Assembly: GCA_041937175.2 (NCBI GenBank) | Contig: CP166615.1 | Span: 3,424,001-3,488,000 of the forward strand | DNA length: 64,000 nt | Source: Limnothrix sp. BL-A-16 | GTDB taxonomy: Bacteria; Cyanobacteriota; Cyanobacteriia; CACIAM-69d | Reading direction: 5' to 3' | In this document: positions 30,001 through 36,000 of the stretch, piece after piece | Layout of the letters: every line of letters starts with the position of its first letter | Numbering within the stretch: position 1 is the stretch's first letter | Program-made: the position numbers

Positions 30001-33000
30001 GGTGCTTATCCAACTCCGCCACAAACACCTTCACCGATCCCGACAGCACAATATAAAAGCTATTGCCCGGATCCCCTTCCCGAAACAGCAGCTCATCTGG
30101 CTTGAGGCGCTGACGGTAACCGCACTCAATCACCCGCCGCAGATCCAAATCATTTAGATGCGAAAAGTAGTGAACCCGTTTCAGGGATTCCGTCAGCAGG
30201 CTCGATCGTGTTTCGCTGGAAATTTGGCGTTGGGCCAAGGGCGCAGGGGGCATAGCGGCCGTTGGATCACTGCCGCGCCCAAGGGGATAGAGCACTTCCG
30301 GGTTCCGGAGCCACAAATCCCGCTGGGGAAAGGGAATTTCAATGCCCTGTTGATGGAATCGATATTCGATCGCGCAGTTGAGGGCATGGCGAGCATCAAA
30401 CTCCCGTTCATAGCCCCGAATCCAAACCCGCAGATCAAAATCCAGCCCATGATCGCCCAACCCCAGCAAAATCACCGTGGGAGCCGGATCATCCAACACC
30501 ATGGACTCGGAATAGGCCACATCCAACAGCAATTCCGTCACCACCAGCGGGTCACTGCTGTAGGCCGTGCTGACTTTGATGTGCAGCCTTGCGGCTAAGT
30601 CGTTGTAGTGCCAATTGATGACCCGTTTTTCCACTAGATCGCTGTTGGGAACGATCACATGGGCCCCGTCCAGGGTGCGAATCACAGCCGATCGCAGGGC
30701 TACCTCCACCACATGCCCCGCCAGCCCATCGAATTCAATGAAATCCCCCACCCGAAGCTTGCGCTCCAAGAGCAGATTCAAGCCGCCCACAAAGTTTTTG
30801 GTGATGTTTTGCAGGCCCAAACCCACACCCACCCCCAAAGCTCCGGCCGGTACAGCGAGGGAATTGAGATTGAATCCGGCACTTTGTAAGAGCGCAACGA
30901 AAATCAAAACGCCGATGCCGTAACTAACAATGCCGGCGATCGGGCCGCGATTGCCCTCATCAATGCGGAGTTTGGCAAGCAGGCGGTTTTGCAGAAATCC
31001 CTTGATGATTTGCGCACCGCCGTAAACCAAGGCACTGTAGAGCACCAGTTGCAGTAAAAACCCAAGAGAAATAACCGTTTCGCCCAATTGAAACAGGGGT
31101 GTTTGCAGCAAATCCAGAAGGCCTTGCTGAAGGGGTTTGAACCAGTTCATGTTAGGGAGAGGTGAGCAACCTAGAGGCTGAAATCAAGCCAGACTAGCCG
31201 TTATTTAACCGAATTACTGTAGTTGAGTTGCTCGGGTGAGGAATTGATTCTGAAGCAAAAATAATGTGATTTTTCAGCCGAGAACCGGTGATTTTTAAGC
31301 TGGAGGGGCAGCGGTGTCTGATTCTGAGGCTGCGGCCTGGGCCCGATCGCCCAGGGATTGCAGCCATTGACCCAGGGCCGGAGACTTGGACGTGAATTGC
31401 ACCAAAACGTGATCCGGGCGATCGGGACTGGGGAGCACTTTGACATAAACTTCGCGGTTTTCCGGGCCTGGGGGCAGGGTATCCGGGGCTGAGGCTTCTG
31501 CCAGGTTCAGCTTGAGATTTGTTAGGGGCTTGGTTAAGGCCTGGGGGTTCGGGGCCGGGGCATTGCTGTCCGGGTCGATTGCCCCTTGGATTTTCAGCCA
31601 ACCGCCTTTGGCAGACAACTCCACCAACGCAACGGCCCAAGCCTGACTGCTGACATGTTTGCCATCCAGGGGTTGGGCGGTGAATTGCAAGGGGGCGATC
31701 GGGTAGTAGGTTTCCTGGGCCCGTTCCAGGGTGAGGTGATAGGGCGCACCCACGCCGCCCACGTCGTAAATGGTGATTGGTTCGGGAACGCCCTTAGGCT
31801 GTACCTGTTGGGTGGCGGCAATGTTGACGTAATCGGAGCCGCCAGCTTCTTCAAGGGCCGATTCGGTAATTAGAATTTGTCCCCCGATCGTGTAGGACTC
31901 AATCCGATAGGTCAGGTTGACTTGGGCCCCCACCACGCCATATTTAGCCCGTTTGTAGGAACCAATGTTGCCGACCACCACTTCGCCCGTGTTGATACCA
32001 ATGCCCATTTCCAAGGGTTGGTAGCCCATTTCGCGCATTTTGGCATTCACACCGCCCATGGCTTGCTGCATGGCGATCGCGCAGGCGATCGCCCGTTTGC
32101 CATCGTCCGATCGGGTGGTGGGAGCCCCAAACAACACCAAAATTCCATCCCCCATAAACTCATCGATCGTGCCCTGAAAGTCCGTGATCGCATCGGCCAT
32201 GGCTTCCAGGTAGAGGTTAATGATTTCGATCACCCTTTCCGGGGGCAACCGTTCGGCGGTGGCCGTGAACCCTCGCAGATCGGAGGTCAAGATGGTGATT
32301 TTTCGCCGCTCCCCGCCCATTTTTAGGCCTTCGGGATCTTCCAGCAGGTTGGCCACCACTTCATTGTTCAGATATCGGCCAAAGGTGTTGCGAATCTGGC
32401 CGGCGGTGCGGGCCAGGTAAAGGGCCACCATGGTCGCTCCCACCAACCAAGACAGCAGGGGCGGCACAAAGGGAACCCACAGGCCTTGGATCATCGCCCC
32501 TTGGCAAATTCCCCACAACAGCAACACCAAGCCGCCGGAACCTCCAATGCCCCAAATGGCAATCCAACGGCGCGAGTCCGGCAGCCGCAACAGCCAAGCC
32601 AAGGTGGAACCAACGGCGGCCCAGCCCACAATCCACAACCACTCGATCGGCTCCTGCCAGGTGGTGAGGAGGGGGCGATTGTCGAGGGCGGCGGCAATCA
32701 CTTCGCTGGTGAAGTGGGCGTGGATTTCAACCCCGGCCATTCTTTGGGGCAGCTCTAGGGGTTTGCCGCTATAGGGCGTGAGGAAGAGATCGCGGCCGCT
32801 TTCGCTGATGTTGCCAATCAGCACCACCCGATCGCGGGCCCAGTTGGCGGGGAGTTTGCCATCCACCAAATCCCGCAAGGAAACGGTTTCAAAGGAGCCA
32901 CTCCCGCCACGATAGTTCAGCAGCAGTTGGTTGCCCGCATCGTTGGCATGGATGTAGCCGCCGTCATGGCTCCGAAACCGCCGAAAAATGGCGTTTTTGA

Positions 33001-36000
33001 GCTGAAAGGCTCCGGGTTCGGCGGCCACGGATTCGGGTGCGACGTTTTCTGGGTATAGATACAGCAGGGCCAGGTAAAGACCCAAACCGTAGATTTTGTT
33101 GTCTTCTACGTCTTGGGTATCGATTAAAACCCGCCGCACTTTGCCATCCGCATCCACCACAAAATCATTGGTGCCCACTTGCCCTTTAGCGGCCAGGGCA
33201 GGAGGCGCGGCCACCCGATCGGCGGCGGTTTCCCCCCGCACCTTGGCAATGCCCACCAGGTAATCGGTGTTGTTAAACAGGCGCACCAGGTTGGCGTGGC
33301 CGGGTTCCTGGGGCAAGTCGCGGTAAATATCCAACCCGATCGCCCGGGGGCCCATGGCCTTTAACCGTTCGATCGCCTGGGCATAGACCCCATCGGGCAG
33401 GGTTGTGGTGCCAAACCGCTGCAAGTCGGCATCGGTGATCCCCACAATTGCCACGCGCCGATCGGGAGCCTCCGCCGGCCGGGCCTGGAGCATTTGGTCA
33501 TAGGCCAACCATTCCAGCCCTTGCAGCAGACCCAATTCCCGCATTCCCAAAACGAAGCCGGTGGCTGTGGGAACCGCCAGCAGCACGCCTCGCCACTGCC
33601 AGACCCACCGTTTGAGGATCTTGGTCCAGGATTTCATAACTGCCACTCAACCGGAGAACCTAATTGGGAAATTGGGAAATTGGGATGGGGAACCTAATTC
33701 AGGAGTCGGGCGCTGGCGAGGTTTTGCAGGCCCACGGATTCCAACAGGCTTTGCCATTGATCCGGTTGGGTGGTTTGGAGGGCGATGGCCGTGGCCAAGG
33801 TGTCGTACCAGAGGCGTGCTTCTGCCAGGACTTGGGCCCGTTGGAAGGGATCGCGGGCTGCACTGAGGCGGCGATTAACGCTGTCCGGCAGGGCCACGAG
33901 TTTCACTTCCCCGATCGCGGCCACATCGCTGGCTCGATCGCTGGGGTCACAAACAATCGAAAAAGCCCAATTGTAGGTTTTGCCCGTTTGCAGCGCCTTG
34001 CCAGGGCTGAGGAGGGACATTTTTAAAATCCCCGCCTGACCGGTGAGCGGCACGGCTTGGCGATCGACCAAGTTGCCATCTTGGTCGGCCACCACCAGTT
34101 CTGCGGTTTTGACCACCGTGGAGGGCACGTAAACAAATACTGTTGGGTTAGCGCTGGTGGCTTGACCTGACTGGTTTTGTGGCAATAAAAGGGTCAAATT
34201 GGGCCCCGTGGCCGCAATACATTCACCGCCTCGGGTGCCACCGCCAGTGGTGCGGTTGGGGCCGCCCCGATCTTCCGTTTGGGGAAACCGCAGCCCGGAG
34301 CGAGGTGCCCCAAAGCGAGTGCCACCCCCGATCGTGCGGTTGGGGCCGCCTCGGTTTTCGGTGTTGGGGAAGACGGGCCCGGCGATCGAGGCGGCCTGGG
34401 CAGGGGCCAGGGAGAGGGCAATGCCACCGCATAGCAGCATGGCAACTGCGCTCCGAGTCGCCAAGTGGTTCCGAGTGGGCGTTTTTTTCTGAAGGTTGCT
34501 CATGACTGGTTCTCCAGCGTGCGTTGCACTGGCTTGCACCTGCATTGCCTGACGGGTTGATTACACCCTGCGATAGGAGTTTTGGACGAGAGAATGGGGG
34601 CCACAAGTTCCAATGCCGGGATAGGCAAGGGCGAGACCAACCGGGAGCCAACGCCCTGAAATGGGCTGACTGCCCTGGATCTCGCCGCTTCTGGGCAATG
34701 GAAATGGAATCTTGAATGGCTGATTCCAATCTTAGCTGGCTGTTTTCAGTTTGCCCCTAGCCACCAATCTGGGACATGGTACGGGCGTAGCGTCCGGTGG
34801 TTCCTGATTCGCGATTTTTGAAGTTGATCTCGGGTTTGGCTTGGATCAGTTGGCTAACTTGGGCCCGCAAATCCTGGAGGTCAACGCCCGATCGCAGTTG
34901 GCTTTTAAGGTCGATTTGGCTCGACTCATTCAGCAGACAGGGGCGCAACCAGCCATCGGCCGAAAGGCGCATTCGATTGCAGCGATCACAGAAGCATTCC
35001 GACATTTGGCTAATGAAGCCGATCGTGCCCTTGGCTCCCGGAATTTGGAACACGTCGGCGGGGCCATTGCCGGTGACCCAACCGGTGGTCAGGCCCCAGC
35101 GCGATCGAATCCGTTGTCGCAACTGCTCTGAATCAATCCAACCCCGATCGGCAAACAGATCTTGATTCCCGATCGGCATGAACTCAATGAACCGCACATG
35201 CCACTGGCGATCGAGCGTCAGGGCGGCCAAGGCTTCCACCTCTTGGTCATTGATGCCCGGGATCACCACCACATTCAGCTTCAGCGGATCGAAACCCACC
35301 CGGTGAGCCGCTTGGATGCCATCCCAAACCTGTTGCCAGCGCGATCGCCCCCGATTCCCAATAATCACATCAAAAGTTTCTGGAATCAGGGAATCCAAGC
35401 TGATATTAATCCGTCGTAATCCTGCGTCGTAGAGCGGTTGGGCCAAATCCTTCAGCAGAAAGGCATTGGTGGTGAGGGACAAGTCCAAGGTTTCTGGAAA
35501 CTGCGCGATCGCCTGGGTAATTTCCACCACCCCCGGCCGCAACAGGGGTTCTCCCCCCGTGAGTCGAAAGCGCCGAAACCCTGCCGGCATCAGCACTTCC
35601 CGCAACAACAGCAGCAACTCCCCATCGGTCAGCAAATCCTGTTGCAACGCAAACTGCAAATCTGTTCCCTCGGGCATACAGTACTGGCAGCGGAAGTTGC
35701 AGCGGTCAATCAAACTGATGCGCAGATAATCAATCGTTTCAGCGGCCATAAGTGCCCAACCCAGTTCCTGACGAACTTGTTCGTGGCGATGTGGCCAATC
35801 ATTATTCAGGATCTCGACCAAAATCCATGCTTTTTCTTGCCGGGTTCGTTCATACCTAATGGGTTATCCTTAATCGGTTCAATCGGTTCATCCGCTCCAT
35901 GGGTTATCATCGGGGCATTCAAATGGCCATCCATATCAACGGCCATCTAAGTTGGTACACTTTTTTTGGCTCGTTAGCCCTTAAGGGCTGGCTGTGCCCG

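Follow-up and report, generated by a model that had tools for sequence, protein, structure and literature searches.

A DUF928 protein as a candidate periplasmic partner of the CHASE2 cyclase receptor encoded beside it in Limnothrix

Gene layout of the locus

The window, that is, the whole 64-kb stretch of Limnothrix DNA that was analysed, carries three genes in a row on its minus strand: a DUF928 gene, then a gene whose product joins CHASE2 to a Cya2-type guanylate cyclase, then a gene for an MscS channel with a cyclic-nucleotide-binding domain (Table 1). The survey's finding that a DUF928 gene adjoins a CHASE2-cyclase gene agrees with Pfam searches of both open reading frames (ORFs); the span given for it, 31295..34440, starts correctly and ends inside the DUF928 gene. 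The open frame of this gene extends to 34545 (33694-34545, 283 aa), and translation likely begins at the ATG at 34503. GGAG is located 9 nt 5' of this codon, the resulting product opens with an n-region and a hydrophobic signal that ends in AQA before AS, and a database protein of 269 aa, 98% identical to the window protein, has the same start. A terminator scan found no terminator-like site on the minus strand of the 47-nt spacer between the first two genes, so that DUF928 and the cyclase gene are likely co-transcribed. The same order of three genes was found at one other examined locus (L014). No CHAT gene is present in the window.

Table 1. Features of the DUF928-CHASE2 locus, in window positions
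Feature	Position	Strand	Details and basis
DUF928 gene	33694..34503	-	269 aa from the likely ATG at 34503; Pfam PF06051, 1.6e-46
Predicted signal peptide	34393..34503	-	basic n-region, hydrophobic core and cleavage-type end between AQA and AS; read from the translation
Gly/Arg motif, copy 1 (mature residues 5-27)	34312..34380	-	GPVFPNTENRGGPNRTIGGGTRF; predicted CHASE2-contacting peptide, complex model
Gly/Arg motif, copy 2 (mature residues 36-58)	34219..34287	-	ends with near-invariant R54 and C58; alignments A1, A2
DUF928 Pfam domain	33706..34245	-	Ig/FN3-like beta-sandwich and C-terminal helical bundle; AF2 model, pLDDT 89.2
Spacer from DUF928 to the CHASE2 cyclase gene	33647..33693	-	47 nt; sequence
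CHASE2 and class III cyclase receptor gene	31295..33646	-	783 aa; Pfam
CHASE2 sensor domain (residues 30-347)	32606..33559	-	membrane helices on both flanks; Pfam 3.8e-63, helices by model and hydropathy
Cya2-type cyclase catalytic domain	31850..32305	-	phmmer against 2W01, 1.1e-81
MscS-type channel gene, C-terminal cyclic-nucleotide-binding domain	29687..31150	-	Pfam MS_channel domains and cNMP_binding, 1.7e-21

The receptor scores 213.9 bits with the CHASE2 profile (PF05226), for which the cut-off is 26.3. An AF2 model of its residues 20-430 (pLDDT 94.8) contains long helices before and after an alpha/beta domain, and hydropathy peaks fall at residues 362-380 and 391-409; going by the description of the family, the CHASE2 domain should be extracytoplasmic. 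No solved relative of CHASE2 was found, either by sequence or by fold. Guanylate_cyc (PF00211) covers residues 448-599 (4.4e-20). Pfam detected no CHAT domain in the receptor, whose output is a cyclase and not a caspase. Synechocystis Cya2 (Sll0646, PDB 2W01) has the same arrangement of CHASE2, membrane helices and cyclase, and the segments TIDEFMGDG and KYGVVGAQVN are identical between it and the window domain in the phmmer alignment. Cya2 is a guanylate cyclase, and the exchange E488K shifts it to ATP; no partner protein of Cya2 is mentioned in the accessible text of that study (PMC5995499). Since the Glu responsible for GTP specificity in Cya2 (E488) is kept in the window cyclase, its sequence suggests cGMP as the likely product.

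Motif and fold of the DUF928 protein

The window protein reaches 158.8 bits against PF06051 (cut-off 26) over residues 101-280 of the 283-aa frame, and Pfam found no other domain in it at E up to 0.01. It shows the features of its family, namely an N-terminal signal, a Gly/Arg motif that closes with Arg...Cys, and another conserved Cys. An N-terminal hydrophobic 13-mer occurs in 131 of 150 DUF928 ORFs, compared with 185 of 583 other ORFs. The Gly/Arg motif is conserved family-wide with the consensus FPxxxxRGxPxRTxGGGTR. R54, C58 and C148 are retained in at least 90% of 91 aligned rows; for R54 and C58 this level is reached in alignments A1 and A2, and GGGTRG is invariant in A2. Gly/Arg repeats before a Cys had been described for this protein; they are indeed present, the motif occurring twice and the Cys closing the second copy. 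The motif copies are degenerate in the other two DUF928 paralogues of the Limnothrix genome. No fusion of DUF928 to CHASE2 was found among eight long members of the family.

The best solved match to the fold of the DUF928 model is the C-terminal domain of MtxA (4Z29_B; Z 9.3, rmsd 3.6, 144 residues aligned to model residues 65-228), followed by a next best match at Z 7.2. MtxA is a secreted protein of magnetotactic Alphaproteobacteria encoded in the mtx cluster, where a CHASE2 adenylate cyclase gene comes directly after it, and a periplasmic sensor or mediator role was suggested by its authors (PMC4439547). Both proteins have an N-terminal signal and, after an Ig-like sandwich, a helical (TPR-like) bundle; in both cases the gene precedes that of a CHASE2 cyclase. 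Nevertheless, identity in the structural alignment is 10%, and MtxA has an N-terminal beta-rich region of ~115 residues in the place where DUF928 has its short Gly/Arg motif. A search of all PDB sequences with a 91-sequence DUF928 profile did not retrieve MtxA at E up to 10.

Association of DUF928 with CHASE2 across cyanobacteria

The neighbour frequencies were determined anew in an independent set of 37 cyanobacterial genomes, with DUF928 loci examined in 29. A DUF928-CHASE2 pair within two genes was present in 23 of the 29 (0.79), and DUF928 with a separate CHAT gene within two genes in 19 (0.66), close to the frequencies of 0.77 and 0.70 reported by the survey. Counted by gene with local profiles, 80 of 150 DUF928 ORFs (53%) have a CHASE2 gene within two genes. 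Among the matches listed, 67 of 150 DUF928 matches have a CHASE2 match within 3 kb, compared with a chance expectation of ~1.2% (265 CHASE2 matches in ~172 Mb); 58 of these 67 pairs share a strand, and most gaps separating the called ORFs are below 400 nt. Chance or hitch-hiking of neighbours without shared function might fit the single CHASE2 gene out of four with a DUF928 neighbour in the Limnothrix genome. It is nonetheless very improbable and already disfavoured, given this excess of adjacency in genomes of many families and the tight, mostly same-strand spacing. The pair also occurs on RefSeq-annotated plasmids of Nostoc punctiforme and Nostoc sp. NIES-3756.

The outputs of 60 DUF928-adjacent CHASE2 proteins are diverse: cyclase (22), CHAT fusion (11), none (7), histidine kinase/HATPase (6), Ser/Thr kinase (4), GGDEF (4), GGDEF with EAL (4) and TIR (2). 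Since eight output architectures occur beside DUF928, the association is with the CHASE2 domain itself. Paired DUF928 and CHASE2 paralogues co-diversify beyond the species signal: their distance matrices correlate with r 0.483 over 77 pairs, whereas within-genome shuffles of these pairs gave a mean of 0.147 and a maximum of 0.312, and none of 1000 reached the observed value. Taken together with the N-terminal signals, these data support DUF928 being an exported protein that is tied specifically to the CHASE2 domain. On a tree of CHASE2 proteins, 23 changes of the paired state were counted; this is fewer than in shuffles (mean 31.0, none of 300 as low), yet still frequent. Co-diversification would be expected of any two genes that are jointly inherited.

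The wider proposal, under which DUF928 would be the partner that CHASE2 domains at large had been lacking, is unsupported or overstated. Roughly half of the members of either family stand unpaired, and DUF928 was absent within 5 kb of 35 of 40 sampled CHASE2 genes without a listed partner. Five of the 37 genomes contain CHASE2 and lack DUF928, as do three control genomes. In the Limnothrix genome, three DUF928 and four CHASE2 matches form a single adjacent pair, and two of the three DUF928 copies do not adjoin CHASE2. What stands of the proposal is an exported protein linked to CHASE2 by the eight outputs, by co-diversification and by the complex model described below.

Predicted docking and its possible consequences

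Modelled with alignments, the complex of CHASE2 and DUF928 gave ipSAE values of 0.62, 0.70 and 0.68 (median 0.68), and the best of three controls 0.00. An earlier, weak score of 0.50 with a control at 0.11 has thereby given way to a pass of the mark, which 116 of 157 solved complexes and 2 of 215 mismatches also attain, these counts being approximate as our own alignments were used. The runs have at least 68% of contacts in common, with a partner pLDDT of at least 77. In the partner, confident placement is limited to residues 5-27, a flexible stretch that corresponds to copy 1 of the Gly/Arg motif, the N-terminal element to which the survey had drawn attention. Because no CHASE2 structure has been solved, the pass does not come from reproducing a known complex. 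Interface residues fall in conserved CHASE2 columns in 9 of 39 cases, compared with ~5 expected, a mild enrichment. Folded proteins with no relation to the pair served as controls, rather than further disordered peptides. It is copy 1, the additional one, that docks, and not the copy adjoining the Cys, which is typical of the family.

We lean, though not strongly, towards DUF928 being a periplasmic protein partner of the CHASE2 domain of its neighbouring receptor, docking by its N-terminal Arg/Gly-rich peptide. DUF928 would be exported to the periplasm, where its N-terminus may insert into CHASE2 of the adjoining receptor like a tethered ligand or regulator, and its MtxA-like body would remain available for binding or reporting another component of the envelope. 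The activity of the cytoplasmic cyclase may then depend on whether CHASE2 is occupied, with cGMP as the probable product and the adjoining MscS channel as a plausible receiver. Where an exported protease of the TPR-CHAT or TPS-CHAT type is encoded beside the pair, as is the case at many other loci, it may process or remove DUF928. No published description of a DUF928-CHASE2 module was found in the literature, and the predicted motif docking provides a concrete, testable candidate for the signal of the CHASE2 receptor class.

Alternatively, DUF928 may be an envelope protein that is merely co-expressed with CHASE2 receptors, such as a structural periplasmic protein or a part of a two-partner-secretion (TPS)/CHAT surface apparatus, and CHASE2 may sense another signal, for example a small molecule or a foreign protein. 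Such a functional neighbourhood without direct binding is unlikely, yet it has several points in its favour. TPS and/or ShlB matches occur in 44 of 150 DUF928 loci, and 55 of 150 DUF928 ORFs have neither CHASE2 nor CHAT within two genes, some of them in tandem arrays. Deletion of mtxA caused no phenotype (PMC4439547). Furthermore, rhizobial CHASE2 cyclases respond to an external protein, and this response runs via an outer-membrane protein and not via a DUF928 protein (PMC7529298). However, adjacency follows the CHASE2 domain through all eight outputs, the paired paralogues co-diversify, and the complex model passes with its controls at zero.

Another mechanism would involve cutting: an exported, caspase-like CHAT protease may cleave DUF928 at or near the conserved Arg, and CHASE2 would read either the peptide thus set free or the absence of the tethered one. 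Of the 80 CHASE2-adjacent DUF928 ORFs, 34 also have a separate CHAT gene within two genes, and 15 further ORFs have CHAT only; TPR-CHAT or TPS-CHAT was confirmed by Pfam in 9 of 31 scanned loci. A signal-like N-terminus occurs in 34 of 45 separate CHAT neighbours, compared with 185 of 583 other ORFs, and the near-invariant Arg of the motif would suit such a cut. The row of DUF1822, TPS and TPR/CHAT genes with a convergent DUF928 gene, described elsewhere in the Limnothrix genome, is present, and its TPR-CHAT protein has a Tat-like SRRSLL motif at its start, with AQA after it. Yet cutting appears distinctly improbable as the explanation. No CHAT gene lies within two genes of 46 of the 80 pairs. 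The window has none either, so that its pair would have to rely on the TPR-CHAT protease whose gene is 1.5 Mb distant, and the Tat-like pattern recurs in none of the 45 CHAT neighbours of other genomes. The CHAT-CHASE2 fusion protein of the Limnothrix genome, which had been cited in favour of cutting, does exist; in such fusions, however, CHAT is N-terminal to the first membrane helix and hence on the cytoplasmic side, across the membrane from CHASE2 and DUF928. It is their output domain; an encounter with DUF928 would be possible only for TPR-CHAT and TPS-CHAT proteins that are separate and bear a signal. Fusion proteins of this kind are covered by the EACC2-caspase-CHASE2 systems with an ECF sigma factor and DUF1822 described by Kaur, Iyer, Burroughs and Aravind in 2021 (PMC8195603), where CHASE2 is termed a small-molecule receptor and the accessible text makes no mention of DUF928 or a periplasmic partner. 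The type accounts for the 11 fusions among the 60 DUF928-adjacent CHASE2 proteins and for one Limnothrix protein (locus L010). The window receptor is not of this type, and DUF1822 is found in the separate TPS/CHAT row of the genome.

For DUF928 as a docking partner, several characterized systems provide partial parallels. The view that CHASE2 has no known ligand is overstated in the light of the NsrA - CyaK/CyaD1/CyaD2 - Clr pathway of Sinorhizobium meliloti, whose CHASE2 cyclases respond to ribosomal protein uL2 via NsrA (PMC7529298, PMC13001267). As proposed for DUF928, CHASE2 cyclases there need a second envelope protein and the signal is of protein nature, whereas the helper is a large outer-membrane beta-barrel rather than a small periplasmic DUF928 protein, and the signal comes from outside the cell. 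The betaproteobacterial 'BiofilmReg' operon encodes a response regulator, an exported LysM-FecR protein and a CHASE2 histidine kinase (PMC5192318). It is likewise a conserved operon with a small exported protein encoded directly beside a CHASE2 receptor; the window protein, however, has neither LysM nor FecR in the Pfam search. LuxP and TorT are soluble periplasmic proteins, encoded beside the receptors LuxQ and TorS, that bind and control the sensor domain, and both are solute-binding proteins carrying a small ligand. The general logic proposed for DUF928 is the same, and it differs in that the predicted contact is made by the partner's own conserved peptide.

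The locus and its genes

The three genes of the locus stand head to tail on the minus strand and encode a DUF928 protein, a CHASE2-cyclase receptor and an MscS-type channel. The spacers measure 47 nt between DUF928 and receptor and 144 nt between receptor and channel, and an unrelated moaA-type radical-SAM gene lies upstream of DUF928. No terminator-like site was found in the 47-nt spacer by a promoter and terminator scan whose counts did not exceed those of shuffled sequence. Metatranscriptome contigs from one dataset match parts of all three genes with 95-100% identity at a depth of 1-8, which is no proof of transcription or of a shared transcript. 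Three raw-read RNA runs under the species label gave 0 reads, a result that carries no weight either way.

Features of the locus and a neighbouring gene (positions within the window)
Feature	Position	Strand	Matches and remarks
DUF928 protein (open frame)	33694-34545	-	PF06051 1.6e-46 (Pfam)
783-aa receptor	31295-33646	-	CHASE2 30-347 (3.8e-63), class III cyclase domain 448-599 (4.4e-20)
MscS-type channel with cyclic-nucleotide-binding domain	29687-31150	-	cNMP_binding 1.7e-21
TPR protein	27739-28728	-	SQSDQ repeat near N-terminus, NPTN repeat at C-terminus; no link to DUF928 or CHASE2 seen

The start of the DUF928 protein is most likely the ATG at 34503 and not 34440. GGAG is located 9 nt ahead of this ATG, and translation from it begins with a basic n-region, followed by a hydrophobic core and an AQA|AS end. 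A protein of 269 aa in a public library, 98% identical to the window DUF928, has the same start position. Because the cyclase domain of the receptor matches the solved Synechocystis Cya2 domain (2W01, 1.1e-81) and retains the Glu to which the guanylate cyclase specificity of Cya2 has been ascribed (PMC5995499), cGMP is its likely product. The position of an MscS channel with a cNMP-binding domain after a Cya2-type cyclase suggests a short pathway from cGMP to the channel. The same order of DUF928, cyclase and channel also occurs in one other fetched genome (G002, channel at L014:9347-10801).

Adjacency and co-diversification of DUF928 and CHASE2

The best-supported explanation of this arrangement, held with somewhat better than even confidence, is that DUF928 is a periplasmic partner of the neighbouring CHASE2 and acts via its N-terminal peptide. 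In 37 cyanobacterial genomes, drawn from 30 genera of one class, the two Pfam models gave 183 DUF928 matches in 31 genomes and 265 CHASE2 matches in 36, and coordinates were taken for the best 150 matches of each family. A CHASE2 match among the best 150 of 265 was located within 3 kb of 67 of the 150 best DUF928 matches, where chance, by hand arithmetic from 265 CHASE2 matches in about 172 Mb, would give roughly 1.2%. Both genes share a strand in 58 of these 67 pairs; DUF928 lies downstream of CHASE2 in 37 of them and precedes it in 21. In the reverse direction, a DUF928 match among the best 150 of 183 was found within 3 kb of 64 of the 150 best CHASE2 matches. Among 40 CHASE2 genes sampled from the rest, four had an adjacent DUF928, one had it three genes off and 35 had none within 5 kb. 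Based on these forward and reverse counts, roughly half of each family is paired.

For a closer view of neighbours, 137 loci were fetched and subjected to greedy ORF calling and local-profile search, yielding 150 DUF928 ORFs from 29 genomes. The local profiles (CHAT from 10 sequences, TPS from 4, ShlB from 2) miss the divergent CHAT of fusion proteins, and were used in place of Pfam for 106 neighbour proteins of unpaired DUF928 genes. The survey's finding of DUF928 beside CHASE2 holds both in the window genes and in this set, in which a CHASE2 gene lies no more than two genes away for 80 of the 150 ORFs; a separate CHAT gene is equally close in 34 of these 80. CHAT alone is the neighbour in 15, and neither is found for 55, of which 15 stand in tandem DUF928 arrays and 8 near a locus edge. 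At least one DUF928-CHASE2 pair was present in 23 of the 29 genomes and a DUF928-CHAT pair in 19, close to the neighbour frequencies of 0.77 and 0.70 reported earlier for CHASE2 and CHAT. RefSeq annotation places such rows on plasmids as well: CHAT - trypco2 - CHASE2 - DUF928 in Nostoc punctiforme PCC 73102, CHASE2 - DUF928 in Nostoc sp. NIES-3756 and DUF928 - CHAT in Acaryochloris marina.

CHASE2 occurs without DUF928 in five of the 37 genomes, as it does in the control genomes of Synechococcus elongatus, Caulobacter and Deinococcus. The partnership is no universal rule for CHASE2. At six fetched loci (L107 with three copies, L077, L096, L120, L131 and L139), two or three DUF928 genes stand in tandem with neither CHASE2 nor CHAT within two genes. 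A large nSTAND1 NTPase with WD40 repeats is encoded beside a DUF928 and TPR-CHAT pair (L104:7812-12857), and a genome of the same genus has a gene of similar size in the same position (L109:7812-12845).

The strongest context argument comes from a Pfam run on 60 distinct CHASE2 proteins adjoining a DUF928 gene, which fall into eight architectures. Their outputs are a cyclase (22), an N-terminal CHAT fusion (11), no other domain (7), a histidine kinase/HATPase (6), a Ser/Thr kinase, GGDEF or GGDEF+EAL (4 each) and an N-terminal TIR (2). CHASE2 is the sole domain constant across the 60, which argues for DUF928 working with the sensor domain itself. Proteins with a DUF928 neighbour in which a cytoplasmic TIR or a Ser/Thr kinase precedes CHASE2 are found at L013:4057-7200, L057:6792-8615 and L067:4861-7191.

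Distance matrices of DUF928 and CHASE2 over 77 pairs correlated with r 0.483. Random re-pairing gave a mean of -0.002 (sd 0.065) and re-pairing within genomes, which keeps the species signal, a mean of 0.147 (sd 0.055, maximum 0.312); the observed value was reached in none of 1000 shuffles. This shows that the pairs are inherited and diversify as units, which does not in itself imply contact. A FastTree of 120 CHASE2 domains, of which 81 are paired and 36 unpaired (3 unknown), shows 23 changes of the paired state, against 31.0 +/- 2.0 with shuffled labels (0/300 as low). The paired trait is thus heritable, yet frequently gained or lost.

The DUF928 protein and the modelled complex

The DUF928 family comprises 4542 representative clusters (50% identity, E up to 0.001). 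In alignments, the signal-like N-terminus is conserved, as is a motif ahead of the Pfam domain with the consensus FPPxxxRGAPxRTxGGGxRGxxC, in which R54 and C58 are near-invariant. C148 is a second near-invariant Cys, suggesting a disulfide between C58 and C148. The window protein carries two copies of the motif, the first at mature residues 5-27 without Cys and the second at 36-58, ending in C58. In the two other paralogues of the same genome the copies are degenerate. A loose form of motif plus Cys does not mark paired genes: it occurs in 47 of 80 DUF928 ORFs beside CHASE2, 6 of 15 beside CHAT alone and 23 of 55 beside neither. Among eight long family members, Pfam found tandem DUF928 and one pentapeptide fusion only, and no fusion to CHASE2 or CHAT; a word-index search for long DUF928 proteins, which is weak evidence, returned nothing.

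In an AF2 model of DUF928 (pLDDT 89.2, pTM 0.82), a flexible N-terminus leads into a beta-sandwich, which is followed by a helical bundle. Among solved structures the model comes closest to the MtxA C-terminal domain (4Z29_B, Z 9.3, rmsd 3.6 over 144 residues; runner-up Z 7.2), a match that spans both sandwich and helices, and Foldseek gave E 5.8e-4 for MtxA. MtxA is secreted by magnetotactic bacteria, and its gene is directly followed by that of a CHASE2 adenylate cyclase; a deletion mutant showed no phenotype, and a role in periplasmic sensing or mediation was proposed (PMC4439547). Because a sequence search with the DUF928 profile does not recover MtxA, DUF928 is not counted in the MtxA family, and the relation is treated as one of a predicted shared fold and of gene context.

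CHASE2 residues 20-430 (71-row alignment) and mature DUF928 (91 rows) were folded together. The three ipSAE values were 0.62, 0.70 and 0.68 (median 0.68) and the best of three controls reached 0.00, although a flexible Gly/Arg peptide docks easily and folded proteins, rather than further disordered peptides, served as controls. Of 157 solved complexes 116 attained the pass mark, as did 2 of 215 mismatches; these counts apply only roughly here, own alignments having been supplied. At least 68% of contacts recur between the runs, and partner pLDDT is at least 77. No solved CHASE2 structure was found by sequence or by fold, and therefore the pass is not recall of a known complex. The model supports DUF928-CHASE2 binding, without showing it.

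Residues 5-27 are the only part of the partner placed with confidence; it is thus the additional copy 1 that docks, whereas the copy typical of the family is the one adjoining the Cys. Receptor contacts include the invariant or near-invariant D87, D142, L178, G219, Q221, G259, D267, G286 and V287 (fragment numbering). By our own count, 9 of 39 conserved CHASE2 columns are contacted versus about 5 expected, a mild enrichment only. CHASE2 itself is assigned no fold: Foldseek returned nothing at E up to 0.001, the best VIA Z of 7.3 lies on membrane helices only, and matches of the periplasmic part to the MurC C-terminal domain and a solute-binding protein (Z 5.1-5.6) were not above background.

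CHAT proteins, related systems and the peptide signal

The own genome of the window contains three DUF928 and four CHASE2 matches with one adjacent pair, a second DUF928 convergent to a DUF1822 - TPS - TPR/CHAT row, and one protein fusing CHAT (186-337) to CHASE2 (463-779), all as the survey had it. It had also proposed that CHAT might cut DUF928, and the fusion cannot serve as a sign of this. As CHAT precedes the first membrane helix (451-469), it is, judged from the predicted topology, an output domain across the membrane from CHASE2, a layout that fits the EACC2-caspase-CHASE2 proteins of Kaur et al. (PMC8195603). The stand-alone TPR-CHAT and TPS-CHAT proteins differ: a signal-like N-terminus is seen in 34 of 45, compared with 185 of 583 other ORFs, and such proteins could encounter DUF928 in the periplasm. 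The TPR-CHAT of the own genome (L008:7058-9661, G000:C1:1916058-1918661) has a Tat-like SRRSLL start and an AQA site, suggesting export in the folded state; the Tat-like pattern occurs in none of 45 CHAT neighbours of other genomes. Of the 80 DUF928-CHASE2 pairs, 46 lack a CHAT gene within two genes, and the window contains no CHAT gene. Proteolytic gating of DUF928 by CHAT is put forward as a hypothesis.

Across the searchable literature outside subscription journals and supplements, DUF928 appears in one paper, as a passing mention of one CHASE2 and DUF928 cluster in Nostoc punctiforme (PMC5587647), and no DUF928 partner is apparent among the CHASE2 titles listed. A 2023 paper still calls CHASE2 ligands unknown and their binding partners sought (PMC10581220). 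Besides MtxA, a second envelope protein accompanies CHASE2 elsewhere, namely a LysM-FecR protein in the Burkholderia BiofilmReg operon (PMC5192318) and, in Sinorhizobium, NsrA with the protein signal uL2 (PMC7529298, PMC13001267). A wider joint reading, which we consider improbable, would have CHASE2 act as the receptor of short peptide motifs rich in Gly and Arg. DUF928 would present a built-in tethered version, P-x-x-R-x-x-GGG-x-R, anchored beside an Ig-like body that a disulfide locks; an exported caspase-like CHAT, where present, would switch the signal by cutting; and uL2, reported as the protein signal of rhizobial CHASE2 cyclases, could act via its own conserved loop. The C-terminal domain of uL2 from the own genome (L191:1501-1878) has the loop HPHGGGEGRAPIGRSGP, and DUF928 copy 1 reads GGGTRFGAPRSG. 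This likeness, seen by eye over a short low-complexity stretch with no statistics behind it, is a lead only.

CHASE2 ranks with the most frequent extracytoplasmic sensor domains in cyanobacteria (265 matches, 37 genomes); it heads cyclases, diguanylate cyclases, kinases, and caspase-like and TIR effectors, and seems to gate immune-type effectors besides second-messenger enzymes. Given an exported, conserved partner whose contact peptide of 20 residues is defined, the question of its ligand would come within reach of simple experiments. If the partnership is true, it would give a function to DUF928 and probably to MtxA too, and this locus would outline a complete short pathway of periplasmic partner, cGMP cyclase and cyclic-nucleotide-gated MscS channel.

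The third DUF928 of the own genome lies two genes away from a PEP carboxylase gene (L009, G000:C1:1672382-1677119). An orphan DUF928 in a genome of another family (L102) is likewise flanked by PEP carboxylase, and this proximity may be conserved synteny of one DUF928 lineage.
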